Below the pieces are notes generated by a model. That model was not told the origin of the DNA. It made no database searches and worked only from the letters and a program-made list of their open reading frames with translations. A stretch of 64,000 nt of DNA from Selaginella moellendorffii (taxonomy: Eukaryota; Plantae; Lycopodiophyta): positions 1 to 64,000 of the forward strand of contig NW_003314437.1 of assembly GCF_000143415.4 (NCBI RefSeq), in the 5' to 3' direction. The position numbers were made by a program, and so were the translations under genes. Of this stretch, positions 28,966-59,413 are shown piece after piece (position 1 is the first letter of the stretch; every line of letters begins with the position of its first letter).

Positions 28966-28989
28966 AAGCTCTATTTCGTTAAAGTGGGA
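28966..28989 (+). repeat. Left TIR of copy 1
   Basis: Exact reverse complement of 44041-44064; identical to 52418-52441. Confidence 0.92.
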
Positions 28990-29625
28990 TTTATTCAGTA
29001 AAATGGGACTAGGTACAAATTTTCAAGTATTTGAAAATGACGTGAAATTATATGTTTTTTGTCCAGGGGCTAGACATATCTGGGGCATGGTGACTAGCGC
29101 GGTGACTTTATGTCCAGACTGAGTCCATCTGGTTGTATAATAAATCTCATTGTCAAGGTGAACAAGCCGAATCTGAAGCTAAAGAAGAGCGATGGCATGC
29201 GCGCACACACTATTTGTTTGTTCATTGAGCGTGTGGTGAGCTTTCCAAGATGAACGTCATTCCTATTAGCCAGACATATAACTTAATGGTGAGAACATTT
29301 AGATATTATTCAATGTTATCTTTTTCTAACGAATCTAATTGTGAAGGTGTAGCAAGAGGCATTGCTAGTCTGGAGAAGTCATTTAACTCATTTGACCCTT
29401 AGTGTATTTTCATGAAACTAAATAACATTCATATTATTAAGAAATTTCTCTAGTACCTTTTTTTTACGACATAGAGGCTTGCATTTCTTTCAAAGGTGAT
29501 TTAGTAAAAGGCCTGAGGGCACATGCCATTCTATTTCTCAGACCGGTATTAAGATATACTAGTGCAAAGGGAAAAAGGTATTTGGTGATCAAGTAAATGG
29601 CATGAGGGCACACGCCATTATAAGC

Positions 29626-29985
29626 CTAAGCGCTAGTGGACACCTCCTTTTTGGTACTCTCAGCGGTACTCTCATCCTTCTCCGGGTCAGTTGTTTTGCT
29701 TTGGATTGTTGTCTCTAACGTTACTGGGGCGTTCTCGATAGTTGTTAATGTTGCCGTTTGTTCAGAAAAATGATCACCTGGAGTATAGTACGGGGAGTTT
29801 GGAAGACTTATATATTCTACATCTTCACCTATCTCCTTCTCCGTCTCCTTTTCTGCCTCACTTACAGATTTTGTGCTTGCCATGAGAACGCTCTTCACCC
29901 TAAAATATGGAGTTCGTTGTGTTATAAAAGGAAACCAACACACACGCTGCAAGGGAATGATGGTACATAAAGCACGTAAGCCCAC
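29626..29985 (-). CDS. Small Ser/Thr/acidic ORF, possible exon of a third element gene
   Basis: 119-aa ORF conserved in copy 2 (53077-53436, one aa change). Followed on the minus strand by GT...AG intron-like segments containing the 22-bp palindrome. Confidence 0.3.
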   Translation of the reverse strand: MGLRALCTIIPLQRVCWFPFITQRTPYFRVKSVLMASTKSVSEAEKETEKEIGEDVEYISLPNSPYYTPGDHFSEQTATLTTIENAPVTLETTIQSKTTDPEKDESTAESTKKEVSTSA

Positions 29986-30174
29986 AATATGGGTTTATGT
30001 GCCATTAATATGGGCCACACGCCATATTATAAGATTTATGCACGTGTGATTGGTAAATGCATATGTCACATCATCTTTGTTTTACCTCACACACTATATC
30101 AAGCCTCCTCTGATTCAGATTCGGATTGTTCACCTTGAAATAAAATACATTAGAAACTTTGTAAAGGAATATTA

Positions 30175-31296
30175 TGTAAGCGACTAAATTTTTCCATTCT
30201 ACTTTAGTCACTTAACCACACCTCCAACCACTTGGAGGAGTCTCATTCACAACCTCCATAAGTCCAATCCAGGACTTGGGACTTGCTAGCCCCGAGAATG
30301 GCATCCATGCCACTCAACATTTGCACTTGGTCCAAGTGCTCCACGTGTCCGATCCCATGACCGACACTCAAAGGTACCACCGACATAGCAGCTCGTTACG
30401 CTAAGGCCATGCCCAATCACCTTTGCCACACTGGTAGTCCACTACCACTTGCATCACCGTCTTGGCTCTCCAAGACTAGGCAAACCATCCGTGAGTGGTC
30501 ATCTCAGATCCACTCCTTAGCATCCTTAGGATGCCCACCGACAAGGGGAATAGCCTTCCCCAATATCCCTCTGTCAGTTCCCACTAAGTCCCTTTCTGCC
30601 CCTGGCCGTGTTTGCCAACACTGCCACTAGATCGAGACCCACAGGCCCGACCACTAAGTCCCACGGTCCTCTGGGACTTCCTCACCACACGACTGTGTCC
30701 TTGGTCACTACCTCAGAGGACTAATCCTCTTCCTTTCCACAGTCTGGGCCTTCGGGACAACATTTCGGAACACCGTGGCCTTACGCGAGCCACCTGGGTA
30801 CTCTCCTCGCCTTTCGCCTTTAGGTGCTCTAGCCATGGGCTTAGAGCGAGGTTCCGTTGAGCCACGACAGGTGTCCAAGTAGGTAGTGCCACCCACACTT
30901 GGACTGGGAGCATCGGCCAGTCGATCTCCCGGGGGAACTAGAGCCGGCTCTTGAACACTTCACCAAGCTACCCCACTTGTCGGTCTGTGTTCACTCTAGT
31001 CTTGGACTTCCCAGTGGGCAGCTCCTCACTCAACACTGGGTCCGGCCTTCCTGGGCCAAACTGGCCTTTCCTGGCCAAACTGGCTCCACTGCAGTCCTCC
31101 CCCTACTATACTTTTGGAGCTCACCAAACCCCCCAGGGTCTGGGAGACGAACGCTTTGGGCTTTCACCCTCTCAGGCTCCGGACTCGGACTCGGACTCGG
31201 ACTCGGACTCGGACTCGGACTCGGACTCGGACTCAGACTCGGACTCGGGCTTGGGCTCGGTCTCGGCCTCGGCCTCGGTCTCGGTCTCGGTCCCGA

Positions 31297-31340
<44 letters not shown>

Positions 31341-31908
31341 CCGGTCTCGGTCTCGACTTCGGACTCCATCTCGGACTCCATCTCGGACTCCATCTCGGAC
31401 TCCATCTCGGGTCCATCTCGGGTCCATCTCGGACTCCATCTCGGACTCCATCTCGGGTCCATCTCGGACTCCATCTCGGACTCCATTTCGGGTCCCTCTC
31501 GGGTCCACCTCGGACTCCATCTCGGACTCCATCTCGGGTCCATCTCGGACTCCATTTCGGGTCCATCTCAGGTCCACCTCGGACTCCATCTCGGACTCCA
31601 CTTCGGACTCCAACTCGGGTCCATCTCGGGTCCACCTCGGACTCCACTTCGGACTCCAACTCGGGTCCATCTCGGACACTCCCACGTGTCATGTGTTGGC
31701 CCTTTTGGGTCCCCTTTTGGAGCCTCGCCTTTTGCTCGCTTCGTGTTCGTTCCTCGAGCACTTCGTTGGGAGTTCCACTCCCGCTCTTGACTTTTCAAGT
31801 CGGAGCTTTTGGTCCAAACGTGTTACGCTCGTTTGGCTCTCGCTTCGGCCACTACCATGTGGCGCCCTTCCGGCTCCACTTTGGGGCCTAGGGATTTTGT
31901 GTCTCACA
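30175..31908. mobile_element. Solo LTR (family A) with 5-bp TSD TATTA
   Basis: TG...CA ends. TATTA at 30170-30174 and 31909-31913. Empty site GGAA-TATTA-ATGAATC in copy 2 at 53613-53617. Confidence 0.95.
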
Positions 31909-31910
31909 TA

Positions 31911-34900
31911 TTAATGAATCTCACCTTGAACCCGAGTTATGAATGCTCTTGCTGCATCTCTTGCATGGTCTGGCAAGGTGATGGTGGCACTCTGCTTCCG
32001 CATCCAACCATGCACAACATTATCCACCGATATGCTCATGCTGGGATCCCTTGGATTCAGCACCCATCTCTTTTCTAGGCAATCCTTCGTATATCCGGAA
32101 CTTGGCTTGAACCACTCCACAGTTACATTGAAGGAGTTAGTTTCCGCGTCCTCCTCTGCATCAGTGATGCAGCGCCCCACCCATATCATTTGTTTTTTAT
32201 TACTGGGTCTGACAAGCACGACCATTCCTTTGCAGACCTGTACTGGATTGAATGCTGAATCCGGCTTCTTGTTCCTCGGCCCACAATAGTGATCCTCAAC
32301 ATCGTTATCTGTCACTGCATTTCCAGAGGACATTGTTCCGCTACTATCTGGTGCTCTGGGTTCTGGCCAAAAGGACTCTTTCAATTCTTCATATACAACC
32401 AGCCCATTTTGGATAGCAGATATAATCTTCTCCCAGTATTCGAGCAAAGGCTTGCACCTCTGAAAATAGGATTCTCCACCAAACACCAACCCCCTCTTCC
32501 AGAAGGCAATATGCTGTCTAATCCCGGCCACTATACTTTCCTGGTCTTTGAGTCCATCCGGGTGCATCGGCCGTGGGGAACCCTGAGGAATCATAGGTTC
32601 CCCAGTTATGGGATCTCTCTTGAAGAGTTCAATGCCGTCCACTGGCAGCCACACTGTGTCCCATTCTCTCATCTTGTACCTCATCACTGGAGCACCGTCA
32701 CACATGCTGAAATGAAACTGAAGAGGCTTGGAGTGGCCAATCAGCGTTTCGGATCCATCCCTGATGTAGCCTCTTACAAACCCCTTAAAGTCTGGAACCT
32801 CTGTCAGAAGTGCAGCTTCAACAGTGCCTTTGATGCAATTTTGGAATTCATCGTAGAGTTGTGGGAGGGTGAGGACATTGGATCGCCGGAGGGACTCTGC
32901 CAGGTGACTGAACATGGCATCGACGTCTTCATGAGTGTGCCCAACCATGAGAAAGCCAAGTGTAACCGTTTCAAATATGCCTTTGGCAACAAGCATCGCC
33001 AAGTACGCGAAGACGTACATGTTTTTGTTCTCACTGCCAGCATTGTCTGTTTGGAGCAGAAGATGGGGTGGAAGGCCACATCGGCCGCAAGAACTTCCTT
33101 GAGATTCTGCTTCGTTTGGATGAGGCTGTGCATTCACCGGGCGACCAGCCTCGTCGGAATGGCATGAGGCCTCACGTGATAACCCTACAATCTGACGGCC
33201 AACATATTCACTGGGATGGCATGGGGCCCCACGCGATACTGCAAGCCTTTGCTCCTCCTCCAGCTGAACCCTGTATGGGGTTCGATCGACAAGGGCCTTA
33301 TGCAAGGGTTGGCCGTTCAGCTCAGTCTGCGCACTTTGCAGAGACCTTAAGTGTTTTGCTAGGGACGCAATCATCATGTTTGCACCCCCGCCACCCCATA
33401 GAGGTACAAAGAAGTTCCCATAGTTCTGGGCACCATGCCCATGAGCGATTATGCCAAACAGAGACACAGGCAGCTGCATGGATGAAGAGATTGCCTTGGG
33501 GGCAGGATTGAGTCGAGGTAAGCACGTCTTTTTCTGGTCCATTTTGTCGTGGATGATGCAGAGGTAAGAGTCAGGTCTCTCCATGGAGAGAATCCTGTTA
33601 TGATAATATGCAGTCCTGCAGCTTCTCTGCTCGATGTTGTGGTCGAGCCGCCTTCTAACCAACGTCTCTCACTCTTGAGCGCTGCAAGAATTCTTCGACA
33701 AAGCCATTTTGATAGCAGTGCACTCGTCACACTTTGAAAAGCTGGAGTACTTTCCTATACTCACATCCCTGAACTTGTTGCTCCACAATCTACTAAATCT
33801 AGATTGGCTCAGCTTCCTGTAGCCATTACTCTGGAGTTCCCGATTCACATCTTCCAATATGGCCCCCTTGGTATACATGGAAGGGAGAACTCGTTGGGTG
33901 TCTCGTGTTCCATCTTCCAAGAGGCGGGTTTTATGTGGTTGCTGCTCGCTACATGTCTCGACAAACCTCTTGAAGATTGCCTCTCCATATACAACATGAC
34001 CCCTGGTTTTGTGCGTACCGTCGTTCCCATGGACTGCCTGTTGAACCCTTTGTTCCTCGAACTCAGTTTTGATTCTGTAGAATGTGGTTCGAGGGACTCC
34101 ATAAATGATTCTCCATGCCTTCATGCAGACCAAACCCCTCTGGAAGACCATGCCCCCCACCTGATGTTCTGAAGCATCAACAGATGACCGTAATGCCTCA
34201 TACACAAAATTGCGAGCTGCCTTCCAGGACAATGTCTTGTATCTTGCTCTCTCCTCTTCAATAGCATCCCAATCAGCATGTTGACAGCACCTCCTCTTGC
34301 AACAAGCAACTGTCGAGACCATTCGAACCTCCATCGCCATTTTCTGCCTTTTCGGTTCGTTGCTCAGATCCCTTTGGCTGCGCTTTAGGAAGGTGTACTT
34401 TCTTTTCCCATGAAGAGATGTTCTGTCATCAGTTGTAGTGGTGTTTGATTGTGAATCCTTCACATTCTCAAACACTAAGTGCCTCAATTTCCACCGCACA
34501 ATGCTTCCAATAGTCAGACTGTTTTCTTCTGTGTCAACAACCTCTAAAATCGCAACTCCAATATCATCCCAGCCCAATTCTTGAATAGCAACCGCATCTC
34601 TTGGATCGACAACTGTGGCTAAGCCCTCAGCTACCACCTCCCCCTCGGGGTTGTTTAGAAACACCTTGGCCTGAATCCATGTAGCACGGTTCTTAAGATC
34701 CACGGAGGGAACATGCGTCGCACTTGCGCTGTCCCCAACATCTGCTTTCTTCTGAAGATTTTTCAAGGCAACAACAACATTTACCCCGACGACCATCTCT
34801 CCTCGTTCAATAGCGACCACATTCCCATCGAAGACAGTCTCTACTGATACAGCAGCATTGCCTTCCCCAAGCCTTTGACAGTGTATAACAAAGTTCCGAT

Positions 34901-34979
34901 CCATAGACACAAGGGTCCCTTTTGCAACTCTCTTCCCACCATTCAAAATGTAAACCTTTTCCCCAACCCTGAAGGCCAT
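31911..34979 (-). pseudogene. Sola-like DDD transposase (~1022 aa), single premature TGA at 33669-33671
   Basis: The 436-aa and 583-aa ORFs are in frame across one TGA (CGA in copy 2). Motifs: CCKRRCC, VCMKAW..YGV, FSKCDEC, IIHDKMDQKKT, LQTDNAGSENKN, FLMVGHTHEDVDAMFS. The Sola assignment is by recalled motif similarity. Confidence 0.8.
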
Positions 34980-35344
34980 TCTGAAAGTGCAGAAAAGAAG
35001 TTAAGACCATACAAAAAATGATTGGAGAATGGCCTAAATCATAACATACCAAACAACCTCAATAGCATGAGGCCACATGCCATTATTCAAACATGCTATT
35101 GACACCCACGTGAAATTTCGCATTCACAAAATTGGCATGAGCCCTCATGCCATCTTGATATACACACAGCTGCAGGCAAGTAAAAACATACATGACAATA
35201 CGCTAGCCATGAAATTGCAAGGGCCCAAGATGGCATGTGGCCTCATGCCATTTCTAAATGTGGTCCTAAGCCATTCCATGGTGAACATACCAGGAAGCAC
35301 AAGTGCCGAATATCAAGAGGAAGCGGTAGCCACACCAAAGACAG

Positions 35345-35535
35345 TGCCGCTCGCAACACTGCAACTACTCGTAGCGCCGCTCGCAACACCGCAACTGCTC
35401 GTAGCGCCGCTCGCACAAACTGCCACTCGCATAAACTGCCGCTCGCAATGGCGCTCGCAATGCCGCAACCGCTCGTAGACACATAAACCACAGCCCACAA
35501 CGCCGCTTACACAAGCAGCGCTCACTGCGCTCAGC
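35345..35535. repeat. GC-rich short tandem repeats (GCCGCTCGCA/GTAGC) upstream of transposase
   Basis: 30-bp periodic units gtagcgccgctcgcaacaccgcaactgctc; conserved at 56645-56835. Confidence 0.8.
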
Positions 35536-36311
35536 GGAACCAAGAACACGGCGCACAAAAATGATAGACCTAGGAATGAGTTCGAGAATTCAAAAATAAC
35601 ACACGCTTGAACGTCACATCAAATCCTCTGACAAACCAGATCTTATGATTCCTCTGACAAATTTCAAACTGAGTAGCTTCTAGACTTTGCTGTCGGAGGT
35701 TGAACTTTGTCACATCATGTCCTTGCCTCGATCCAGCTGTGCCATGTCAGTGATTCGAACTTTGCCATGCCATGTCAGCGATCCGCGCCAAGATTATTCG
35801 CCGTGTAAAGGAATAATTACGCTGTGTGTGTACGTCCATTTATGGCAATATAAGGCCACACGCCATTCAAAGAATAATGCTCGACATAAGGCCACACGCC
35901 ATTCAAAGAATAATGCTAGTCGAGCATTTTTTGGTGCATTTTTGGGTTCAAAATTGCATGAGCCCACACGCTATAAAGTTTACCTGTACCAAAAATAGAA
36001 ACAGCTTTATTTACTTGGGAATTTAAGTGGTTGAGGCATTTTTAAACTTACAAACACATGCCCTACTTACATTCCTTTGGTTGCCTAAAATTCAAAAATA
36101 TTATAAACCTTTCTTTTTGCATTTTCAATGTTTTCAATTATGGTTTTTGATTTTCGTAGGACCAGCCTAGTAATCTATTTGCATCCCGTCATGTTTATAG
36201 CTAGCTTTCGTTCGTCCCCTTCGCTAGCCTGAGATACATCTGCTCGGCATCTGCCTCTTACAGCATTTGCCCAGAAAGGGCATCTTTCTTCACGCAGCAT
36301 TTGCCACATGA

Positions 36312-36343
36312 TTAGGGTTTAGGGTTTAGGGTTTAGGGTTTAG
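36312..36343 (+). repeat. Interstitial plant telomere repeats (TTTAGGG)~4.5
   Basis: ttagggtttagggtttagggtttagggtttag; three units in copy 2 at 57575-57595. Confidence 0.9.
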
Positions 36344-37556
36344 CAATTCAGTAGCTTGATAAACATGCAAATACAGAACTTGATGCAAAATCCTTTGATA
36401 TGTCACAATGCCCCTAGGACCATAAATACATTTCAATAGAGAGGGTCCTTTCATTTCATAACTCCTTACGTAGATCTTGGTGAAACCAGAGTTAGTGAAG
36501 TTAGTTTCTTGTGATCCCGCATCTGATTGTGATGTCCCTTTGCAGTTTCGATGGAAAGGTCAATGCACACCAAACTGTAAAATCTTGGAGCAAAATAACG
36601 GTCGGATCTATGGCAAATGCCCCTGAAACATTGTAAGGCTCGTGTGGTCTCATGTGGTGTCCGATTGAGATGCTTCTTTGCAGGGTCATCAAGAAAGACA
36701 TTGTATACCATTCTGTAAAATCTAGTTGCGATCTAACGGTTGGATCTCTAGAAAACTAAAAAAAATCTCGCGCGTGTCAGAATATCCTAGGAATATACTC
36801 CTATGTGCCCCTGAAAATGGCATGCGGCCCCACGCCATTCAAGAGATAACGGCAGATGACGCCGATAATTTTTTGGTGCATTTTTTGGGTTCAAAATTGC
36901 ATGAGCCCACACGCTATAAAGTTTATCTTTGCCAAATAGAGAAAAGTTTATCTGTGTCATGTGAGGTAGTTACAGTCCTTTGTGCTCGGCATCTGCCTCT
37001 TGCAGCATTTGCACTGAAAGGGAATTTTTCTCCATTCAGCATTTGGCCCTGAAAATGGCATGCGCCCACACGCCATTCAAGGAATAACGCCACAGGATGC
37101 CTGGATTTTTGGGTTTAAAATGTTTAGGGTTTTTTGGGTTTTTTCAAAATATTTTGGGTCCAACGTTTTTTGGGTTTCTTTGGTTCAAAATTGCATGAGC
37201 CCACACGCTATAATATTGATTTGAGAGAAAAATAGAAACAGATAGAATTTCTTTATTTAGCTGAACATCTGCCATTTTTGGAAATACAAGATGCTTTGGA
37301 ATATCCAATCATGCATGGTATAAATATAGCGAGGGTATTAAATGATATCCCAATCATGATCTTTCTTTTGGATTTCGCGTGCATGCAGTCCGAGGAATGA
37401 TGACGTTGCGGATTTCTTTTGGATTTTGCGTGCTTGCATGCGCGCGGCAATCCAGAAATTAATGGTGGCGCCTAAGTCCGAGGAATGATGACGTGGCGGG
37501 ATTACCAACCGTTGTGACATTTCGCGCGTGTGAGGTTAGGTTTTGCATTTTGCTTT

Positions 37557-37735
37557 GTACTCGCGCTTGCACACTCGCGCTCGCGCTCGCATCACACTCG
37601 CGCTCCCGCTCGCATCGTGCTCCCACTCGCGATCACGCTCACTTCTCTACAGGTTTCTCGTGTGCATCGGCGTCCACTCGCGCTTGCATCACACTCGCGC
37701 TCGCATCGCGCTCGTGTGCATCGGCGTCCACTTCA
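37557..37735. repeat. CpG-rich ACTCGCGC/TCGCATC repeats upstream of cargo gene
   Basis: Repeated actcgcgct(c/t)gcatcac units; conserved at 58810-58985. Confidence 0.75.
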
Positions 37736-38849
37736 AGACACACCCAGTTTGTAACTTCGCCGCCAACTCCACCGCCCACTCCACCACCCACACGCAGCCC
37801 ACTTGGCGTCCCGGGAGATTTCAGCACCACTCTCCAACTGTAAGTGGCAGAGTAGCCTTGCTGCTACGATCCGCTGCACACACAGTGCACATTCGCCAGC
37901 GAGTCCGGCCTCGATTGTCACGGCCTCCATTCGGCTTCAAATGGTAAGTCTTTTAGATGAAGTAGAAAATGGCATGAGGCCACATGCCATTCAGTAGCAA
38001 CATTGGCATGCACCGATTGGGCTCTCGAGTGGAGTCCGGTTACAGATGGCGTGTAGCCTCACGCCATCTTAGGATGCAGCCTCAAGACATCTGATGCAGT
38101 GGTGAATGGCGTGTGGCCTCACGTTATTTCCAGCTGCTAGCTTTTCATCTGTCAGCTCTAATTGTTGTGCATTTTTGAACAGGCGAGGAATTGCGTTCTT
38201 CTTCCAGCCACTGTCAATGTGGATGCAGAGAAGGGGGAGGAGCTCACCAGTTGGACTTTCGGGATGGAAGGCGAGGATCTGATGCTGTACAACACAGATG
38301 GTGGGAGAAAAGAATGCATGGGGATCCTCATCCAAGTGACAGACACTCCATGCAGTTCCATGCAAGAATATGGACTGGCACTTGTGGTAGAGACAGCGTC
38401 CGCCTTCAAGATCCACCTTGCACATCCTAGCGGCTTCCCGGAGGGGGGCAGCGGCTATGAGGAATTCCTAGAGGGAGCTAGGGAGAGGTTGTCCAGAAGG
38501 CCCACAATTTCAAAGACGCTGCGGGTCTATGAAGATCACATGGAATCCACGGACCTCACCTACGGCGATGTTCAAAAACTATATTCCAACATTGAGCCGT
38601 TGAGAGTGCCTCCAGTTTGCGAAGCGAAGGGGAAGGGGGTCGATCTGGAAACTACCCCGAAGCAGAAAAGGGTGGTCAAGCTCAAGCCGACGTCCGACTC
38701 TGCTGCTCCAAAAAAGAAGCTACTCGGTGATGCCATTGCCTCGGGTTCGAACACTACACCCACCAAAAAGAAGAGCCGCAAAGAGCAGAAAGAGCAAGAA
38801 GAGGCAGCAAAAATCGTCGCAGATAATAGTACTTGTTACTATTCCAACA

Positions 38850-39250
38850 AAGTATATACAATCGACGTGAGCCGTATCGACATCCAAAGCAAATACAACC
38901 ACAGGCTAGTATCTGATGAGTGGGTGGAGAAACTGAAGCAGAAGATGCTGGCAAGTCCAGTAACACCCGACATCGCAGACGTGATCCCCTACTACCGAAC
39001 AATGAAGGGCGAGACGAGGTTTCCAGACTTGATCAATAGGAAGGTGTTGGACGATCAGAACATCCGGTTCTATGCCATCTCCGGGCAGCATTCTAGCTTG
39101 GCGATGCAACAGATAGTTGTGGATATTATGGTGGGCGAGGAGGTGAAGAAAGTCTTCAAGACAAGAGTTGTCCGCCTGATAAAAGGCAACTCGCCCCTCC
39201 GATCTATCATATACATCTCCCACGCGCAGAATGTCAAGCAAGAAACGTGC
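38850..39250 (+). CDS. ParB/sulfiredoxin-like N-terminal domain (DGQHR-like variant SGQHS)
   Basis: YTIDVSRI...YNHRLVSDEWVEKLKQKM...P..ADV...RFYAISGQHSSLAMQQI follows the ParB N-terminal pattern: strand, R, helix, P-x-x-V, Y-x-I-x-G-x-H-x-x-x-A. Confidence 0.6.
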
Positions 39251-42200
39251 TACAAATCGGGTCTGCACGAGACATTGGCACGAACACGGAAGCTCTGGGT
39301 TCAACTGAAGAAGCCACAAAAACCAGGACAAGGACGTGCACTAGCAACTAGCGCCTGGCAGGTAAGCCTCGTTGCATGTGGCATAGCATGTGGCCTCACG
39401 CCATTTCCATTGCAGGAATTCTCGAGTCTTCTCTCGAAAACACTGGGGGTCAATGACACACTCAGCATCCATAACATTCTACACGCGACAAAAGTTGTTT
39501 TTGACAAATGGGTAGATGTGCTAAGGAGGTACCATGACGGGGAGTTGCTAAACTCAATGGGTGTGGAGGACGGCCGGAAGCCCAATGATTTGAAGCTCAA
39601 CGCCTTGCGTTTCTCGCGGTCTCTAGACGACGACGACCTTCTGACAGTGGCTAATGCTCTTCTACTTGGTGAGGTAGTCTTCAACAAGACCAAAATGACT
39701 CCCGGCCATATTGTGACATACGAGGACTTGTGCACGACTCTGAGAGCTCGTGCGCTATTGAAGGATTGGATCTTCGAGCAAGTGGCCGTGGCGAGGGTGA
39801 GCATCGACACCACGCAAGAGATGATGGAAGAGCTGGACTTGTCAAATGAAGACATCGACGAGTACGTGAAGGGGGCCCCCAAGTTCATCGATCTGCTGCG
39901 GGATGCCACGAAAAGTAAAGCTGAGAAGTTGGATTAGTATCCAAATTTCATTAAGAGGGATGTCGACCGCCGGCTTCAGAAACAGCTCGACCCCGCAGCA
40001 GAGGCCTATCGAGAACCTTACCGGGTATACGTGAATTCGGATGAGGATCAAAGGTGGAGGAGCATCGTTTCCCGCGGAGATGAGCAGGTCAAGAACATCT
40101 TTTGTGTGATGGACTTCACAAACGAGGAGATCACTCATGCAGACGAAGTCAGCTCCATCATTGACTTAATGGTGGGACTTGCGGAGGTGGAATCTTCAGT
40201 CCACTATATGATCTACGACTCCGAATCCTATCACAAGTTCTGGAAGGCCTTGAACGAGGTGAAGGCTCGGTTGAAAGGCAAGGAGATGCGGGAGATCCAT
40301 GGGATAATGGCTAAGAAGAAGATACCGACGAATGTCCGCATCTTCACAGTCGCCCTTGTTATTGGTCCTGCAGCAGAGTGGGACTGGAGTGACTTCCCAG
40401 CTTCGTTCAACAAAGCCGATCGAATTGATCTGAGGGAGGTCAATTTACCCGTGCCTGAGGAACTGAAGACGGCTATGGAGCTTTCGAATCCAAAGAAAGC
40501 TCCAGGTGCAGCATGGGAAATGCTCAGCTGGGTCTTCAACACAATAGCGGGTGACTCCAAGGGCAAATGCGTTGTCGAGTACAACTGCGGCGGACTATTC
40601 TTTCGAGCCGTACTACTCAAGGGTGTCCCGTGTGTTGCGGTGACAAACTCCATTGAAGAGGTGACTTCAATGGAGCATATAATTACAGTTGCCAAAGAAA
40701 AACAGTATCTTCTCTACGAACCTGGTGAGTACGCACTTTAAGTTTAAATGTTATCTCACAAGCTCTGTATGCAGGAGCGTGGCCACCCCCAGATGCTGAA
40801 ACGGCGTTAACAGCTACTGATGTTAGGCCGAGGTCACAACCTGCACAAGGTAAGGTCACGTGAGGCCTCACACCATTTTGATTATAGATCGTTGTGAATA
40901 TTCAGACACGAGGACTGAAAAGCGCACTGGTGGCGCGTCGAAGAAGGACAAACAGACAAGCAATAGGAAAAAAGGAGGTACAAATTATATTTGCAATGGC
41001 GTGTGGTCTCATGCCATTCCTTGCAGGAGACACTTCTTCAAAGGCAAAACAGGCAAGCACCAGCCAAGCTCAAACTGACAGTGGTCATAAAAAGCGAAAG
41101 CACGTTGGACAGTCGTCGGGATCAGAGGCGTTTGATTCGAAAAGGAAGAAGGGCAACGAAAAGATGATAGGTAATGCCTCGCGGTTATGGCGTGTGTGCT
41201 CATGCCATTCATTGCAGATCAAGGGCTGAGTGAAAGGAGCCAGTCACCACCTTCTGACTCAGATTCCTATGGCGGACTCCCCTTCCCCAATCTCAATGGA
41301 GAGGTACAATGGATGAGGGATGCTTTTCAAGTCAGGGCCACGTTTTTCTCATCTCGTCGTCTTCGAAGGGTGCAAGAACGTGCAGAAACCATGTTAAGAC
41401 AGTCGGGTGAGGATACGGTCCTAGGTCACGCACTAAAACAGGCTATGGATGTCTTGTACGGTCCTAGGTCACGCACTAAAACAGGCTATGGATGTCTTGT
41501 ATTTTGAGATGGAGACTCGGCCAAAGGATTTTCCAAGATGTTCCTGGAAAAACAAGCAATCCAGCCTGAGCAGCCTATGGAAGAAATGCAAGAGGGGGAT
41601 GAGGAGCCAGAGAAAGATAATGAGCAGGAAGAGCAGAAGGACGAAGAGGAGGACGAAGAAGAGGAGGACGAAGAGGACTTGGATGGTCCTCACAATGGTG
41701 ACGATCACAATAACGACGATAACGATGATGACGATGATGGCCAGCCTGAGGTGGCCAAAGAGCAGCGGAGGAAGGTCATACAAGACAAACCATCAGGTAA
41801 ATAATAGTACATCCATTCCTAACCTTTTACCATTTCTAACATTGTCCATGTAGGTCGCAGAAGAAATGGTAAGTAGAGATTATTCAGTTGAATTAAGATA
41901 CAAACTCTAGCCTTTAGTGTCGAGGAAGGATAGTGCCAAGCAAGGGTCGAAACGTATGTCCAATCCTTCAGAATCAGCAGTGCGCCCAAGTGATATCGGT
42001 CCTAGTTCCTCAATAGTAGTTGATGGTAAATACAGTATAGTCAATTCAATGTGCTAATGAGTTTGTTTTTAGTAGCACGGGAGGATACCATCTCAATCGA
42101 AGGGAGATATTTGGACATGCATATGGATCCGCCAGTGGACTCTACTTGCCTGCAAGAGTCATCAGAGCTGGTGGAGGCTACTATCCATATCAACGCCAAG

Positions 42201-42696
42201 CAAGCTGACCACGCTCCACTTGATGCTGCCCATACCACTGAGTCAATCTTGTCCACGTATCCAACTGACGGTGACCAGGCGCCATTGGACCCGCATGAGG
42301 CCGCCCCAGCCGCCGAGCCGGTCGTATCCTCATTTCCAACGTGTGCCCAATCGTCTGACTACGCGCCGTTGGAACCTCCCTACACCGCCCCTGCTGCCTG
42401 TTCGGTCATGTCCACTTTGCCAACGGAGGCACCAGCTGAAATGGCGTGTGATCACACGCCATCGGAACCACCCCATGCCACTGTTGAGCCAGTTGTACCA
42501 GAGTCTACAGCTGAAATGGCATGTGCCCACACGCCATCGGATGCGATTGACCCCACATTGCAGAGGAGAGTATTTCCGCCCTTCACGTTTCCTCGACCAA
42601 AACCCTCTGAACGACCATCGGGAGCACCATTCGCTAATATTGTAGATGGTAAAATTGACTTGTACCATTTTTTATGCTAACGCATTTCATTTCAGA

Positions 42697-43435
42697 GTCA
42701 CGGCGAAAGTACTGTATCGTTTTTGATCTGAACGGTGTCCTTTTCTCCCATGAGCGTGGCTCGTCCTCGAATGTCACTGCACCCTCCAAAGCCTGCGGTC
42801 GCAAGTTGGTCAAAAGAGACAGATTCACATTAATCACACGGGAGAAACTGCGGGATCTAATAATGANNNNNNNNNNNNNNNNNNNNNNNNNNNNNNNNNN
42901 NNNNNNNNNNNNNNNNNNNNNNNNNNNNNNNNNNNNNNNNNNNNNNNNNNNNNNNNNNNNNNNNNNCGGGTTCAATTTGCAATTGGGAGTTTGGACATCC
43001 ATGATGCGCCACAATGCATTAACGTTGCTACAGATGATGCACGATCAGACGCGAGTAATATTACCATTTGACTTTCTCCTAACGCAGGAGGATTGCTTGA
43101 CTATGGTCCATGTGAGGGGTAGCAAGCCCATCTTCGTCAAGGCAGAGGCTGTAGTGATGAACCGGACTGCTAGGTCAAGTGAAATCCTCATCATCGATGA
43201 CTCGCCGATTAAAACTGCAGCGAACACGCACACATATGCAGTGCACCCCATCTCTTGCAGTATGGAAACTAGGGAGAAGAAACCGTATGTTCTGGGGGAC
43301 CTTGCAAAACGGCTTGAAGCGATGGTGATAGAGAACCGGCCAGTCCAGGAGGTGGCTGCAGAAATCAACCAAATGGCAGATGGAACGGTATATCAGAAGC
43401 CATTTGATCGGACAGACACCAGTCATCATTTATGA
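42697..43435 (+). CDS. FCP1/NIF-type HAD phosphatase-like domain (last exon, contains N gap)
   Basis: CIVFDLNGVL (motif I), LGVWTS (motif II), IFVK, ILIIDDSPIK (motif IV). Confidence 0.75.
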
Positions 43436-44040
43436 CATGTATATTGTCTAGCCAAGCACTATCCGCATCTCCATAATCTGCTCAACCGGATGGGTTCTTC
43501 GACCACTGAACATGAGCGTGGACGTATTAGAGAAGAGATGGCATTACTATTGGGTTTAAATCCTGATAGTGTGGAGAGTGATGAAATTCCAAGATTATTG
43601 TATAGGCGTTGGAGGCAAAAAATAACAGTCTGAGATGGCATGTATTTATTTAAAAATGTAACTTATTATGGCATGGGGTTCCATGCCATTGTATTAATAT
43701 TAAAAGACAATTCTTTGAGAGGATTTGCATTATACTAGAAGTGTTACAGCATGTTATTGGAAGTCTACGAAGTTGTTTTATTAATAAGGGGAAAGTAAAG
43801 ATTGAATGGGGACTTGGGCTCCACCTAGACTCGGAGCAATTGAGCCAATATTAAAAGGATGGAAAGAAATTGGACGACAATGACAAGGAGAAGAGAGAGG
43901 TGAAGCAGTGAGAAGTGATTGAGTAGACATTTCCTTGTTTAAAATAAAATGGCATGTGCCTCAATGCAGTTGAATTTTGTTATATTTATATACTATATAA
44001 AGGTTTGGAAACCTTATTTTACAAGTGGGATAATGACAAT

Positions 44041-44064
44041 TCCCACTTTAACGAAATAGAGCTT
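44041..44064 (-). repeat. Right TIR of copy 1
   Basis: Exact reverse complement of 28966-28989. Confidence 0.92.
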
Positions 44065-52417: not shown

Positions 52418-53614
52418 AAGCTCTATTTCGTTAAAGTGGGATTTATTCAGTAAAATGGGACTAGGTACAAATTTTCAAGTATTTGAAAATGACGTGAAAT
52501 TATATGTTTTTTGTCCAGGGGCTAGACATATCTGGGGCATGGTGACTAGCGGGTGACTTTATGTCCAGACTGCGTCCATCTGGTTGTATAATAAATCTCA
52601 TTGTCAAGGTGAACAAGCCGAATCTGAAGCTAAAGAAGAGCGATGGCATGTGCGCACACACTATTTGTTTGTTCATTGAGCGTGTGGTGAGCTTTCCAAG
52701 ATGAACGTCATTCCTATTAGCCAGACATATAACTTAATGGTGAGAACATTTAGATATTATTCAATGTTATCTTTTTCTAACGAATCTAATTGTGAAGGTG
52801 TAGCAAGAGGCATTGCTAGTCTGGAGAAGTCATTTAACTCATTTGACCCTTAGTGTATTTTCATGAAACTAAATAACATTCATATTATTAAGGAATTTCT
52901 CTAGTACCTTTTTTTTACGACATAGAGGCTTGCATTTCTTTCAAAGGTGATTTAGTAAAAGGCCTGAGGGCACATGCCATTCTATTTCTCAGACCGGTAT
53001 TAAGATATACTAGTGCAAAGGGAAAAAGGTATTTGGTGCTCAAGTAAATGGCATGAGGGCACACGCCATTATAAGCCTAAGCGCTAGTGGACACCTCCTT
53101 TTTGGTACTCTCAGCGGTACTATCATCCTTCTCCGGGTCAGTTGTTTTGCTTTGGATTGTTGTCTCTAACGTTACTGGGGCGTTCTCGATAGTTGTTAAT
53201 GTTGCCGTTTGTTCAGAAAAATGATCACCTGGAGTATAGTACGGGGAGTTTGGAAGACTTATATATTCTACATCTTCACCTATCTCCTTCTCCGTCTCCT
53301 TTTCTGCCTCACTTACAGATTTTGTGCTTGCCATGAGAACGCTCTTCACCCTAAAATATGGAGTTCGTTGTGTTATAAAAGGAAACCAACACACACGCTG
53401 CAAGGGAATGATGGTACATAAAGCACGTAAGCCCACAATATGGGTTTATGTGCCATTAATATGGGCCACACGCCATATTATTAGATTTATGCACATGTGA
53501 TTGGTAAATGCATATGTCACATCATCTCAGGCCACATGCCATCACGCCTCCTCTGATTCAGATTTGGATTGTTCACCTTGAAATAAAATACATTAGAAAC
53601 TTAGTAAAGGAATA

Positions 53615-56279
53615 TTAATGAATCTCACCTTGAACCCGGGTTATGAATGCTCTTGCTACATCTCTTGCATGGTCTGGCAAGGTGATGGTGGCACTCTGCT
53701 TCCGCATTTAACCATGCACAACATTATCCACCGATATGCTCATGCTGGGATCCCTTGGATTCAGCACCCATCTCTTTTCTAGGCAATCCTTCGTATATCC
53801 GGAACTTGGCTTGAACCACTCCACAGTTACATTGAAGGAGTTAGTTTCCGCGTCCTCCTCTACATCAGTGATGCAGCGCCCCACCCATATCATTTGTTTT
53901 TTATTACTGGGTCTGACAAGCACGACCATTCCTTTGCAGACCTGTACTGGATTGAATGCTGAATCCGGCTTCTTGTTCCTCGGCCCACAATAGTGATCCT
54001 CAACATCGTTATCTGTCACTGCATTTCCAAAGGACATTGTTCCGCTACTATCTGGTGCTCTGGGTTCTGGCCAAAAGGACTCTTCCAATTCTTCATATAC
54101 AACCGGCCCATTTTGGATAGCAGATATAATCTTCTCCCAGTATTCGAGCAAAGGCTTGCACCTCTGAAAATAGGATTCTCCACCAAACACCAACCCCCTC
54201 TTCCAGAAGGCAATATGCTGTCTAATCCGGGCCACTATACTTTCCTGGTCTTTGAGTCCATCCGGGTGCATCGGCCGTGGGGAACCCTGAGGAATCATAG
54301 GTTCCCCAGTTATGGGATCTCTCTTGAAGAGTTCAATGCTGTCCACTGGCAGCCACACTGTGTCCCATTCTCTCATCTTGTACCTCATCACTGGAGCACC
54401 GTCACACATGCTGAAATGAAACTGAAGAGGCTTGGAGTGGCCAATTAGCGTTTTGGATCCGTCCCTGATGTAGCCTCTTACAAACCCCTTAAAGTCTGGA
54501 ACCTCTGTGAGAAGTGCAGCTTCAACAGTGCCTTTGATGCAATTTTGGAATTCATCGTAGAGTTGTGGGAGGGTGAGGACATTGGATCGCCGGAGGGACT
54601 CTGCCAGGTGACTGAACATGGCATCGACGTCTTCATGAGTGTGCCCAACCATGAGAAAGCCAAGTGTAACCGTTTCAAATATGCCTTTGGCAACAAGCAT
54701 CGCCAAGTACGCGAAGACGTACATGTTTTTGTTCTCACTGCCAGCATTGTCTGTTTGGAGCAGAAGATGGGGTGGAAGGCCACATCGGCCGCAAGAACTT
54801 CCTTGAGATTCTGCTTCGTTTGGATGAGGCTGTGCATTCACCGGGCGACCAGCCTCGTCGGAATGGCATGAGGCCTCACGTGATAACCCTACAATCTGAC
54901 GGCCAACATATTCACTGGGATGGCATGGGGCCCCACGCGATACTGCAAGCCTTTGCTCCTCCTCCAGCTGAACCCTGTATGGGGTTCGATCGACAAGGGC
55001 CTTATGCAAGGGTTGGCCATTCAGCTCAGTCTGCGCACTTTGCAGAGACCTTAAGTGTTTTGCTAGGGACGCAATCATCATGTTTGCACCCCCGCCACCC
55101 CATAGAGGTACAAAGAAGTTCCCATAGTTCTGGGCACCATGCCCATGAGCGATTATGCCAAATAGAGACACAGGCAGTTGCATGGATGAAGAGATTGCCT
55201 TGGGGGCAAGATTGAGTCGAGGTAAGCACGTCTTTTTCTGGTCCATTTTGTCGTGGATGATGCAGAGGTAAGAGTCAGGTCTCTCCATGGAAAGAATCCT
55301 GTTATGATAATATGCAGTCCTGCAGCTTCTCTGCTCGATGTTGTGGTCGAGCCGCCTTCTAACCAACGTCTCTCGCGTAGAATGTGGTTCGAGGGACTCC
55401 ATAAATGATTCTCCATGCCTTCATGCAGACCAAACCCCTCTGGAAGACCATGCCCCCCACCTGATGTTCTGAAGCATCAACAGATGACCGTAATGCCTCA
55501 TACACAAAATTGCAAGCTGCCTTCCAGGACAATGTCTTGTATCTTGCTCTCTCCTCTTCAATAGCATCCCAATCAGCATGTTGACAGCACCTCCTCTTGC
55601 AACAAGCAACTGTCGAGACCATTTGAACCTCCATCGCCATTTTCTGCCTTTTCGGTTCGTTGCTCAGAACCCTTTGGCTGCACTTTAGGAAGGTGTACTT
55701 TCTTTTCCCATGAAGAGATGTTCTGTCATCAGTTGTAGTGGTGTTTGATTGTGAATCCTTCACATTCTCAAACACTAAGTGCCTCAATTTCCACCGCACA
55801 ATGCTTCCAATAGTCAGACTGTTTTCTTCTGTGTCAACAACCTCTAAAATCGCTACTCCAATATCATCCCAGCCCAATTCTTGATTAGCAACCGCATCTC
55901 TTGGATTGACAACTGTGGCTAAGCCCTCAGCTACCACCTCCCCCTCGGGGTTGTTTAGAAACACCTTTGCCTGAATCCATGTAGCACGGTTCTTAAGATC
56001 CACGGAGGGAACATGCGTCGCACTTGCACTGTCCCCAACATCTGCTTTCTTCTGAAGAGTTTTCAAGGCAACAACAACATTTACCCCGACGACCATCTCT
56101 CCTTGTTCAATAGCGACCACATTCCCATCGAAGACAGTCTCTACTGATACAGCAGCATTGCCTTCCCCAAGCCTTTGACACTGTATAACAAAGTTCCGAT
56201 CCATAGACACAAGGGTCCCTTTTGCAACTCTCTTCCCACCATTCAAAATGTAAACCTTTTCCCCAACCCTGAAGGCCAT
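53615..56279 (-). pseudogene. Sola-like transposase, copy 2 (404-bp frameshifting deletion; premature TAA at 53708)
   Basis: The junction at 55376/55377 removes copy-1 bases 33673-34076. TGG is replaced by TAA near the C-terminus. Confidence 0.85.
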
Positions 56280-59200
56280 TCTGAAAGTGCAGAAAAGAAG
56301 TTAAGACCATACAAAAAATGATTGGAGAATGGCCTAAATCATAACATACCAAACAACCTCAATAGCATGAGGCCACATGCCATTATTCAAACATGCTATT
56401 GACACCCACGTGAAATTTCGCATTCACAAAATTGGCATGAGGCCTCATGCCATCTTGATATACACACAGCTGCAGGCAAGTAAAAACATACATAACAATA
56501 CGCTAGCCATGAAATTGCAAGGGCCCAAGATGGCATGTGGCCTCATGCCATTTCTAAATGTGGTCCTAAGCCATTCCATGGTGAACATACCAGGAAGCAC
56601 AAGTGCCGAATATCAAGAGGAAGCGGTAGCCACACCAAAGACAGTGCCGCTCGCAACACCGCAACTACTCGTAGCGCCGCTCGCAACACCGCAACTGCTC
56701 GTAGCGCCGCTTGCACAAACTGCCACTCGCATAAACTGCCGCTCGCAATGGTGCTCGCAATGCCGCAACCGCTCGTAGACGCATAAACCACAGCCCACAA
56801 CACCGCTTACACAAGCAGCGCTCACTGCGCTCAGCGGAACCAAGAACACGGCGCGCAAAAATGATAGACCTAGGAATGAGTTTGAGAATTCAAAAATAAC
56901 ACACGCTTGAATGTCACATCAAATCCTCTGACAAACCAGATTTTATGATTCCTCTGACAAATTTCAAACTGAGTAGCTTCTAGACTTTGCTGTCGGAGGT
57001 TGAACTTTGTCACATCATGTCCTTGCCTCGATCCAGCTGTGCCATGTCAGTGATTCGAACTTTGCCATGCCATGTCAGCGATCCGCGCCAAAATTATTTG
57101 CCGTGTAAAGGAATAATTATGCTGTGTGTGTACGTCCATTTATGGCAATATAAGGCCACACGCCATTCAAAGAATAATGCTAGTCGAGCATTTTTTGGTG
57201 CATTTTTGGGTTCAAAATTGCATGAGCCCACACGCTATAAAGTTTACCTGTACCAAAAATAGAAACAGCTTTATTTACTTGGGAATTTAAGTGGTTGAGG
57301 CATTTTTAAACTTACAAACATATGCCCTACTTACATTCCTTTGGTTGCCTAAAATTCAAAAATATTATAAACCTTTCTTTTTGCATTTTCAATGTTTTCA
57401 ATTATGGTTTTTGATTTTCGTAGGACCAGCCTAGTAATCTATTTGCATCCCGTCATGTTTATAGCTAGCTTTCGTTCGTCCCCTTCGCTAGCCTGAGATA
57501 CATCTGCTCGGCATCTGCCTCTTACAGCATTTGCCCAGAAAGGGCATCTTTCTTCACGCAGCATTTGCCATATGTTTAGGGTTTAGGGTTTAGGGTTTTG
57601 CAATTCAGTAGCTTGATAAACATGCAAATACAGAACTTGATGCAAAATCCTTTGATATGTCACAATGCCCCTAGGACCATAAACACATTTCAATAGGGTC
57701 CTTTCATTTCATAACTCCTTACGTAGATCTTGGTGAAACCAGAGTTAGTGAAGTTAGTTTCTTGTGATCCTGCATCTGATTGTGATGTCCCTTTGCAGTG
57801 TCGATGGAAAGGTCAATGCACACCAAACTGTAAAATCTTAGAGCAAAATAACGGTCAGATCTATGGCAAATGCCCCTGAAACATTATAAGGCTCGTGTGG
57901 TCTCATGTGGTGTCCGATCGAGATGCTTCTTTGCAGGGTCATCAAGAAAGACATTGTATACCATTCTGTAAAATCTAGTTGCGATCTAACGGTTGGATCT
58001 CCAGAAAACTCAAAAAAATCTCGCGCGTGTCAAAATATTCTAGGAATATACTCCTATGTGCCCCTGAAAATGGCATGCGGCCCCACGCCATTCAAGAGAT
58101 AACGCCAGATGACGCCGAGAATTTTTTGGTGCATTTTTTGGGTTCAAAATTGCATGAGCCCACACGCTATAAAGTTTATCTTTGCCAAATAGAGAAAAGT
58201 TTATCTGTGTCATGTGAGGTAATTACAGTCCTTTGTGCTCGGCATCTGCCTCTTGCAGCATTTGCACTGAAAGGGAATTTTTCTCCATTCAGCATTTGGC
58301 TCTGAAAATGGCATGCGCCCACACGCCATTCAAGGAATAACGCCACAGGACGCCTGGATTTTTGGGTTTAAAATGTTTAGGGTTTTTTGGGTTTTTTCAA
58401 AATATTTTGGGTCTAACGTTTTTTGGGTTTCTTTGGTTCAAAATTGCATGAGCCCACACGCTATAATATTGATTTGAGAGAAAAATAGAAACAGATAGAA
58501 TTTCTTTATTTAGCTGAATATTTGCCATTTTTGGAAATACAAGATGCTTTGGAATATCCAATCATGCATGGTATAAATATAGCGAGGGTATTAAATGATA
58601 TCCCAATCATGATCTTTCTTTTGGATTTTGCGTGCATGCAGTCCGAGGAATGATGACGTTGCAGATTTCTTTTGGATTTTGCGTGCTTACATGCGCGCGG
58701 CAATCCAGAAATTAATGGTGGCGCCCAAGTCCGAGGAATGATGACGTGGCGGGATAACCAACCGTTGTGACATTTCGCGCGTGTGAGGTTAGGTTTTGCA
58801 TTTTGCTTCGTACTCGCGCTCGCACACTCGCGGTCGCGCTCGCATCACACTCGCGCTCCCACTCGCGATGACGCTCACATTCGTGCTCATCTACCTTCTC
58901 TACAGGTTTCTCGTGTGCATCGGCGTCCACTCGCGCTTGCATCACACTCGCGCTCGCATCGCGCTCGTGTGCATCGGCGTCCAGTTCAAGACACACCCAG
59001 TTTGTAACTTCGTCACCAACTCCACCGCCCACTCCGCCACCCACACGCAGCCCACTTGGCGTCCCAGGAGATTTCAGCGCCACTCTCCAACTGTAAGTGG
59101 CAGAGTAGCCTTGCTGCTACGATCCGCTACACACACAGTGCACATTCGCCAGCGAGTCCGGCCTCGATTGTCACGCCTCCATTCGGCTTCAAATGGTAAG

Positions 59201-59413
59201 TCTTTTAGGCCAAGTAGAAAATGGCATGAGGCCACATGCCATTCAGTAGCAACATTGGCATGCACCGATTGGGCTCTCGAGTGCAGTCCGGTTACAGATG
59301 GCGTGTAGCCTCACGCCATCTTAGGATGCAGCCTCAAGACATCTGATGCAGTGGTGAATGGCGTGTGGCCTCACGTTATTTCCAGCTGCTAGCTTTTCAT
59401 CTGTCAGCTCTAA

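Follow-up and report, generated by a model that had tools for sequence, protein, structure and literature searches.

The 22-bp palindrome (consensus ATGGCRTG-WGSSCW-CAYGCCAT) that recurs through a DNA transposon of Selaginella moellendorffii appears to be a family mark. Judging from sequence and modeling, we give even chances to its being a double-stranded DNA site for the ParB-like cargo protein of the element itself. Such a protein would form a coat along the element, probably leaving it expressed or poised to transpose. The reading that best accounts for its distribution, which we hold with about half confidence, is that the copies are putative self-recognition sites resembling those of VANC or parS, parked in free sequence. 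Palindrome counts beyond the element refer to the window, meaning the whole 64,000-nt stretch analyzed.

By its transposase, the element belongs with the DUF7869 DNA transposons, called Sola-like because DUF7869 is presumably linked to the Sola superfamily. Its main parts are as follows.

28966 to 28989, plus strand: left terminal inverted repeat of copy 1; the outer 4 nt may be target sequence.
30175-31908: solo LTR, in the inferred last intron of the transposase gene.
31911 to 34979, minus strand: DUF7869 transposase gene (Pfam DUF7869, E=1e-42), with an in-frame stop at 33669-33671 in copy 1.
37941 to 43435, plus strand: cargo gene, at least 11 exons.
44041 to 44064, minus strand: right terminal inverted repeat.
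52418 to 64000: element copy 2, 97-99% identical, carrying 23 palindrome matches and the ten GT-AG introns of copy 1, running past the window end.

The terminal repeats match at 26 of 27 bases, compared across an N gap (42867-42966) that separates the right one from the left, and the right one may belong to another copy. The end of the second copy at 52418 is identical to the left end of copy 1, an empty-site contig has the same outer 4 nt as the left repeat, and an 11-nt core of the repeat is common to DUF7869 loci L001-L003. No matched flank pair representing a target site duplication (4 bp, the Sola criterion) was found within the window. Homologs of the transposase are up to 43% identical over most of its length.

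Palindromes were counted with a profile trained on 23 of the copy-1 sites. Copy 1 contains 25 sites, 22 of which score 24-37 bits; that at 40855 is degenerate (14.8 bits). Because these 25 sites compare with none in the 37,318 bp outside both elements and 0-0.05 per shuffle of the element, a chance origin is excluded. The solo LTR (1,734 bp) also contains none and, once it is removed, neighboring palindromes are at most ~1.9 kb apart. They are not concentrated near the element ends, where the same search found none in the terminal repeats. This confinement bears on the possibility that the element exploits a host transcription or chromatin factor as reader of the site. We consider this quite improbable: 37 kb of flanking DNA in the window lacks the palindrome, related elements carry palindromes that differ from this 22-mer, and 22 symmetric bases would be long for the site of a host factor.

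The cargo introns account for a minority of the 25 copies: of the other 18, 14 are in non-coding DNA elsewhere in the element and 4 in coding exons.

29192 to 30025: downstream of the transposase; palindromes at 29192, 29508 and 29597, half-site at 30013.
33159 to 33237: exonic palindromes in the transposase at 33159 and 33216, in a poorly conserved insert.
34981 to 35290, minus strand: inferred 5' intron of the transposase gene, bounded by GTATGT..TTTCAG and immediately ahead of the ATG; palindromes at 35062, 35132 and 35230.
35840 to 37211: intergenic region between the head-to-head genes; palindromes at 35881, 35953, 36817, 36896, 37055 and 37190, half-site at 35854.
42441 and 42516: exonic palindromes in the Pro/Ala-rich linker of the cargo.
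43668 to 43970: downstream of the cargo gene; palindromes at 43668 and 43949.

Local duplication made five of the six intergenic palindromes. Densities per kb are 9.3 in introns, 3.1 in other non-coding DNA and 0.5 in CDS. Palindromes are thus depleted in coding DNA (non-coding versus CDS, p=9e-6), and introns are ~3 times denser than other non-coding DNA, a modest excess (p=0.005-0.023, n=7-10 sites). A sequence-only reading of this DNA had proposed that introns serve as parking places for DNA sites, to be refuted if their motif density were no higher than in other non-coding DNA; the avoidance of coding DNA and the higher density in introns both favor that proposal, with the sites putative. 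The same reading placed intron-like segments on the minus strand at ~29470-29640. The palindromes there (29508, 29597) are real, but the intron status depends on weak donors (GTCTGA, GTGTCC).

Removal of ten GT-AG introns with consistent phases leaves one reading frame in both copies of the cargo gene, with 2 leftover stops per copy. Damage in copy 1 comprises a stop at 39935 and a local frameshift near 41414-41532. The modeled introns, all on the plus strand, are listed below.

37944 to 38182: intron 1, 239 nt, phase 0; palindromes at 37969, 38046 and 38106; joins the ATG to the open frame.
39362 to 39415: intron 2, 54 nt, phase 0; palindrome at 39383, CTCAC at -18.
40725 to 40774: intron 3, without a palindrome.
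40850 to 40905: intron 4, 56 nt, or 38 nt if it ends at 40887, the frame being kept either way; degenerate palindrome at 40855.
40978 to 41026: intron 5, 49 nt; palindrome at 40996, CTCAT at -16; retention shifts the frame.
41171 to 41217: intron 6, 47 nt; palindrome at 41187, CTCAT at -16; retention shifts the frame.
41797-41853, 41869-41917, 42026-42075 and 42649-42695: introns 7-10, without palindromes.

Where present in introns of 47-54 nt, the palindrome occupies 41-47% of the length. The earlier reading, which assigned one copy to each intron that it listed, was correct as to these sites, but its list was selective (5 of 10 modeled introns, or 4 of 9 short ones, have the palindrome), and its segments at 37944-37994 and from 38102 onward both fall inside the single 239-nt intron with three palindromes. 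As a separate coding intron, 37944-37994 was rejected, its acceptor joining the ATG to a TAG. No splice joint was found in three raw RNA runs (~12% of each) and three contig sets that are possibly RNA, in which coverage of the element was almost nil. The sole deep RNA signal was a 40-nt rRNA-like piece. An Rfam search gave no match above threshold.

Intron 2 matches exactly a junction in a Selaginella RefSeq homolog (P0077, between WQ and EF), and its segment is a gap in the alignment with homologous proteins. Such a missing segment was seen for intron 2 only, the linker introns being in unalignable sequence. Distant homologs (~25% identical) share this intron position, and by this comparison the palindrome is younger than the position of at least one intron. 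That result largely refutes, for intron 2, the idea that the introns were created by insertion of the palindrome as an introner-like unit, which had also been put forward from the sequence. The similar distance of the palindrome from the 3' end in introns 2, 5 and 6 speaks for such an origin. Against it, flanks of intronic palindromes are mutually unrelated, sharing at most 22 of 50 bases with any other copy (the median of all pairs is 15), the introns are not alike over their whole length and five cargo introns have no palindrome. An origin by insertion should be considered extremely improbable.

Judging from sequence, a branch-point-like CTCAY in each of the four short motif introns is part of the palindrome and stands at the usual distance; one of these introns has an uncertain acceptor. 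The yTnAy pentamer that it contributes is at -18, -18, -16 and -16; four of the five motif-free short introns have a yTnAy at -15 to -19. We infer that palindromes are retained wherever sequence is free, and tiny introns would take them up because long coding stretches leave only introns free. A palindrome would fit a 50-nt intron because, in its usual orientation, CTCAY doubles as the branch point. In the intron-less 3-kb transposase frame, palindromes would be accommodated in a variable loop.

The same overlap would permit a different role, also suggested earlier, in which an RNA hairpin masks the branch point and controls how the cargo transcript is spliced. The arms in introns 5 and 6 fold as predicted (z -2.5 and -1.7) and would bury CTCAY, and at positions 6/17 G-U (6) is more frequent than A-C (2) on the transcribed strand. 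However, the folds of introns 2 and 4 are no more stable than those of shuffles (z 0.45 and -0.25), and any transcribed DNA palindrome folds. Six sites are between the two genes and four are in exons. The palindrome is symmetric along its whole length, yet in RNA the conserved inner positions 10/13 would have to close an impossible 2-nt loop and cannot pair. At position 10, 43 of 46 half-sites carry G, and 16 of 19 oriented sites have G-C as the 10/13 pair; positions 9/14 are mismatched in 11 of 19, mostly as T/T. With this pattern of conservation, a site in double-stranded DNA seems a better fit than a hairpin in RNA. The hairpin, weakly favored at best, is very improbable.

By structure prediction, the cargo protein would have a fold like that of ParB, the DNA-partition protein of bacteria. 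Its domain order is N-terminal, ParB/Srx-fold (SGQHS motif), helical, possible decayed methyltransferase-like, low-complexity linker and NIF/HAD phosphatase-like. The predicted model matches PadC (Z 9.7, rmsd 3.2, 100 aligned) and KorB (Z 9.0); its best Foldseek matches are Noc (E=3e-4) and ParB, and its Atlas look-alikes are DUF3723 clusters (0.96-0.97). Pfam recognized a ParB domain in none of 16 family members, and a PDB sequence search did not recognize that of the cargo. ParB proteins have the CTP-binding motif GxxR, the arginine of which is Ser in the cargo family; the motif reads GQHS, with GQH invariant in 16 of 16. No helix-turn-helix was identified in the helical part of the model, which is of low confidence and without a specific match, and a helical-domain search found no longer homologs. 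For the methyltransferase-like part, Atlas gave leads (0.88-0.89) to PF01555 clusters, the poor model (pLDDT 48) gave no methyltransferase match and no DPPY-type motif is visible. Proteins P0001 and P0003 were rejected as homologs, their matches being driven by repeats.

Intronic palindromes recur elsewhere. Two unrelated DUF7869 loci, L074 and L035, have their own palindromes in introns (2 of 4 and 1 of 1 mapped introns, respectively) and none in exons, without the branch-point overlap. They share one transposase intron position, which holds a palindrome in L035 and none in L074, and this also argues against introns created by insertion. The L062 repeat was rejected as an intron parallel, its copies being in intron-less frames. 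A ParB-like gene was found in 0 of 83 related transposase loci (including palindrome-bearing L001, L035 and L074), which, like the replaced arginine and the failure to identify a helix-turn-helix, counts against the cargo as reader, although most contigs are too short for such a gene. The plant ParB profile gave no match to accessory frames of L033, L052 and L062 (probability 0.1). Scans with ParB alignments found no locus in viral or metagenome contigs, and a transposase scan of viral contigs found none.

These loci bear on whether the DNA sites are read instead by the transposase or its spliced isoform, as with Spm TnpA, the ParB cargo doing another job. Repeated palindromes in DUF7869 loci where a ParB gene was looked for without success (L001, L035 and L074, with tandem arrays in L065, L067 and L077) are consistent with this, as are a weak Transposase_23 match at the transposase N-terminus (Pfam, E=0.025) and a preprint describing transposases that bind cognate motifs and activate their own copies (10.64898/2026.08.24.746577). 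Note, however, that L035 and L074 are only 4.8 kb and 3.1 kb, and that the divergent frame of L035 is cut off at the contig end. TnpA and the AtMu1 transposase are described as binding termini (10.64898/2026.08.24.746577), whereas the palindrome is neither in the terminal repeats nor clustered near the ends. We regard a transposase reader as somewhat unlikely. Spm resembles the present element in its family-specific motif clusters and in having an element protein as reader (a candidate here); unlike here, its motifs are described as clustering at termini and TnpA as derived from the transposase (10.64898/2026.08.24.746577).

Reading by the ParB-like cargo would have parallels in bacteria. ParB/parS, Noc/NBS and KorB/OB each pair the ParB/Srx fold that is predicted here with a long site of dyad symmetry, repeated many times on the DNA that encodes the protein. 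Unlike those systems, the element has no ParA, a replaced arginine, no identified helix-turn-helix and a spliced eukaryotic gene on a transposon. A fuller version, which we think unlikely, is a domesticated ParB/parS-like system of land-plant transposons. The ParB-fold protein would load at palindromes no more than 2 kb apart, spread, and shield or compact the element, and intronic bases would be DNA site and branch point at once, locking the tag into the reader's gene.

Among eukaryotic transposons, VANC21 of Arabidopsis is bound at motifs located in the introns and intergenic DNA of VANDAL elements (PMC5735166). As in VANDAL21, a multi-gene DNA transposon here has an element-specific motif in introns and in intergenic or terminal non-coding DNA; the family-specific distribution of VANC motifs is found for the palindrome too. 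VANC21 is an accessory protein bound at its motif, whereas the ParB-like reader is a candidate only; the VANC motif is 9 bp, non-palindromic and spread by tandem repeats, whereas the 22-bp palindrome is mostly dispersed in unrelated flanks; and VANDAL21 is Mutator-like, set apart by domains from a DUF7869 transposase with ParB-like cargo (PMC5735166). Sola1-1_Ec32 of Ectocarpus has a ParB-methyltransferase gene opposite its Sola1 transposase, the product of which is proposed to bind and modify its own element (PMC12477816). Both are large elements with an opposite-strand accessory gene for a ParB-like domain and a methyltransferase domain, the latter only a possible, decayed one here. The terminal repeat of Sola1-1_Ec32 is 282 bp (~24 bp here), and the string "palindrom" does not occur in the main text of the article (PMC12477816). 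Unlike there, the methyltransferase-like part of the present protein has no visible DPPY-type motif and is followed by a NIF/HAD domain, and the host is a seed-free land plant. For Plavaka PAG3 of Bostrychia moritziana, which has a ParB-like accessory protein, inverted repeats are proposed as binding sites. These form tandem arrays beside the gene, whereas the present sites are dispersed in introns and other gaps, and their effector, a 2OG oxygenase, belongs to an EnSpm/Plavaka element, unlike here (10.1101/2025.02.11.637652).

Marking and regulation of a transposon's own DNA are known from few cases, and the Bostrychia preprint names VANDAL as the sole known example of an element that binds its own sequence and modifies it (10.1101/2025.02.11.637652). 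Related designs are already published from algae and Arabidopsis; in the literature searched, which covers few subscription journals, there was no land-plant description of a ParB-like transposon accessory gene among the results listed. For the algal proposals of ParB-like accessory genes, the Selaginella element offers a precise candidate site and a bacterial-type candidate reader. In addition, it illustrates the way in which introns of 50 nt can accommodate a long site, and the recurrence of intronic palindromes in two unrelated DUF7869 elements suggests that the design is general.

The element occurs at 28966-44064, where an N gap interrupts it, and again from 52418 up to the window end. 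The two copies are 97-99% identical, and the element ends in short terminal inverted repeats. Its transposase gene (DUF7869, Pfam E=1e-42) is on the minus strand and lies head to head with the cargo gene on the plus strand. The second copy was covered throughout by contigs of one run (type unrecorded) at a mean word depth of ~110, which is not a copy number and suggests a repeated family. LTR-retrotransposon sequence surrounds both copies. The four outermost bases of what looks like the terminal repeat (52418-52421) are also present in empty-site contigs, so they may represent a preferred target and not element sequence. Other features of the element are:

30175-31908, copy 1: solo LTR within what is inferred to be the final transposase intron, missing in copy 2
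36312-36343 and 57574-57598: TTTAGGG plant-telomere-like repeats between the head-to-head genes
29629-29882, minus strand: possible third gene downstream of the transposase, a short acidic open frame that both copies keep intact and that had no match in a Pfam search
37837-37876 (second copy, 59090-59128): piece of 40 nt, upstream of the ATG of the cargo gene, that matches a very abundant RNA

Reads of this RNA continue into other sequence, and the 40-nt piece gives rise to a false expression peak. In Rfam it had a weak match (E=0.55) to the 3' end of eukaryotic LSU rRNA, and it appears to be a fragment of captured rRNA.

Scanning with up to 3 mismatches returned 47 matches to the palindrome, versus 0-2 in shuffles. 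Two of these (25101 and 51565) lie outside the elements and under the threshold of the motif profile, in which all 22 bases are symmetric (ATGGCRTG-WGSSCW-CAYGCCAT). Profile sites number 25 in copy 1 and 23 in the partial copy 2, with none in the 37,318 bp outside the elements and none in the solo LTR. With the LTR removed, the widest spacing between sites is ~1.9 kb. A 2.7-kb stretch coding conserved domains holds a single site, inside its only intron; the four exonic copies fall in a variable transposase insert and the Pro/Ala-rich linker of the cargo protein. Per kb, introns hold 9.3 sites, other non-coding DNA 3.1 and coding sequence 0.5. Note that the corresponding p-values (introns versus other non-coding DNA, 0.023, or 0.005 with the inferred transposase 5' intron included; non-coding versus coding, 9e-6) are optimistic, as sites are not fully independent. 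The sequence-only reading had placed the motif in many cargo introns, and a density there no higher than in other non-coding DNA would have spoken against it. The density is higher, and 5 of 10 cargo introns carry the motif; it is nevertheless not intron-specific, but an element-wide DNA tag with real, modest intron enrichment.

In both copies, removing ten GT-AG introns yields one phase-consistent frame that starts with the ATG (37941 in copy 1) and extends into the NIF domain. Of the two stops left in each copy, one is common to both; a contig from run X1 has a sense codon there. Retention of any intron except 39362-39415 would disrupt the frame or introduce a stop. Fern homologs of ~1,000-1,400 aa (12 matches, 10 with PF03031) hold ParB-like and NIF domains in a single protein, which requires the linker to be spliced through. 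The intron with the best homology support is 39362-39415, across whose junction the Selaginella RefSeq homolog P0077 reads WQEF. Of 20 homologs at this junction, 12 stop no more than 55 residues from the anchor, right after a valine near the junction, probably because gene calls ran into the same intron; five resemble spliced models, one reads on, one ends earlier and one lacks the anchor. An intron at 37944-37994, proposed earlier, was rejected since splicing would place a stop directly after the ATG; a single intron of 239 nt with three motif copies fits instead. No splice joints were seen in RNA reads, due to the near silence of the element in the runs examined.

It had also been proposed that the introns arose from motif insertion. 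Of 50 flanking bases, intronic copies have at most 22 in common with any other copy, and the position of intron 2 (39362) is old, making this origin unlikely. Local duplication is evident in five intergenic and two exonic copies (27-39 of 50 flank bases).

A hairpin acting in the pre-mRNA, another earlier suggestion, agrees with two of four short motif introns, which fold better than shuffles; the other two do not. On the transcribed strand, however, motif positions 10/13 form a G-C pair in 16 of 19 sites, though a 2-nt loop would result, 9/14 are mismatched in 11 of 19, and six sites are intergenic, all of which favours a double-stranded DNA site. The motif could still have a side effect on splicing. 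In its favoured orientation it supplies CTCAY at -18 in two introns (for intron 4, in its 38-nt form) and at -16 in two others, counted from the 3' end. This agrees with the -15 to -19 of four of five motif-free short introns; random placement would give the same in 19-45% of positions per intron. We infer that the motif doubles as intron branch point.

The ParB-like cargo protein is a candidate reader of the motif. Its central domain is predicted to adopt a ParB/Srx fold (PadC, Z 9.7; KorB, Z 9.0; Noc and ParB by Foldseek), with GQHS at the position of the ParB motif GxxR. No HTH appeared in the modelled cargo protein. The following domain gave weak leads to N4/N6 methyltransferases with no visible catalytic motif, leaving self-methylation unsupported for this element.

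We compared 83 DUF7869 transposase loci, the best 80 of 145 confirmed in a metagenome scan plus 3 from a genome scan. None shows a ParB-like gene, which weakens the case for the cargo protein as reader, although most contigs are short. Several loci among those of at least 2 kb have their own repeated palindrome. Introns were mapped in two of these, L074 and L035, chosen by eye; they are unrelated DUF7869 transposases, and their short introns carry palindromes of their own. Positions in these and in three other loci with palindromes are:

L074, 906-956 and 1700-1752: motif introns
L035, 3068-3136: motif intron
L065, 3342-3681; L067, 3271-3590; L077, 2184-3018: tandem palindrome arrays

Four introns (one GC-AG) give L074 a stop-free frame of 704 codons; two carry the palindrome, with 4 copies in 194 bp versus 0 in 2,112 bp of exon. 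The single L035 intron interrupts the Pfam domain (model positions 94/93) and carries the palindrome; four further copies lie upstream. The arrays lie downstream of the transposases, and every unit, 27 bp or 63 bp long, contains a palindrome. L062, L033 and L052 are GC-rich, mostly intron-less, multi-gene DUF7869 elements whose related accessory genes fall outside any Pfam family. A 13-bp palindrome-like word occurs 17 times in L062, coding frames included.

VANDAL/VANC resembles the element in motif placement (PMC5735166), and Ectocarpus Sola1-1 (PMC12477816) and Bostrychia Plavaka (10.1101/2025.02.11.637652) in a ParB-like accessory gene. The element is not a VANC member, and no land-plant description of such a ParB-like transposon system was found in the literature searched. 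A seed-free land plant is the likely host, given that the named cargo homologs come from Selaginella moellendorffii, Calypogeia and Adiantum.
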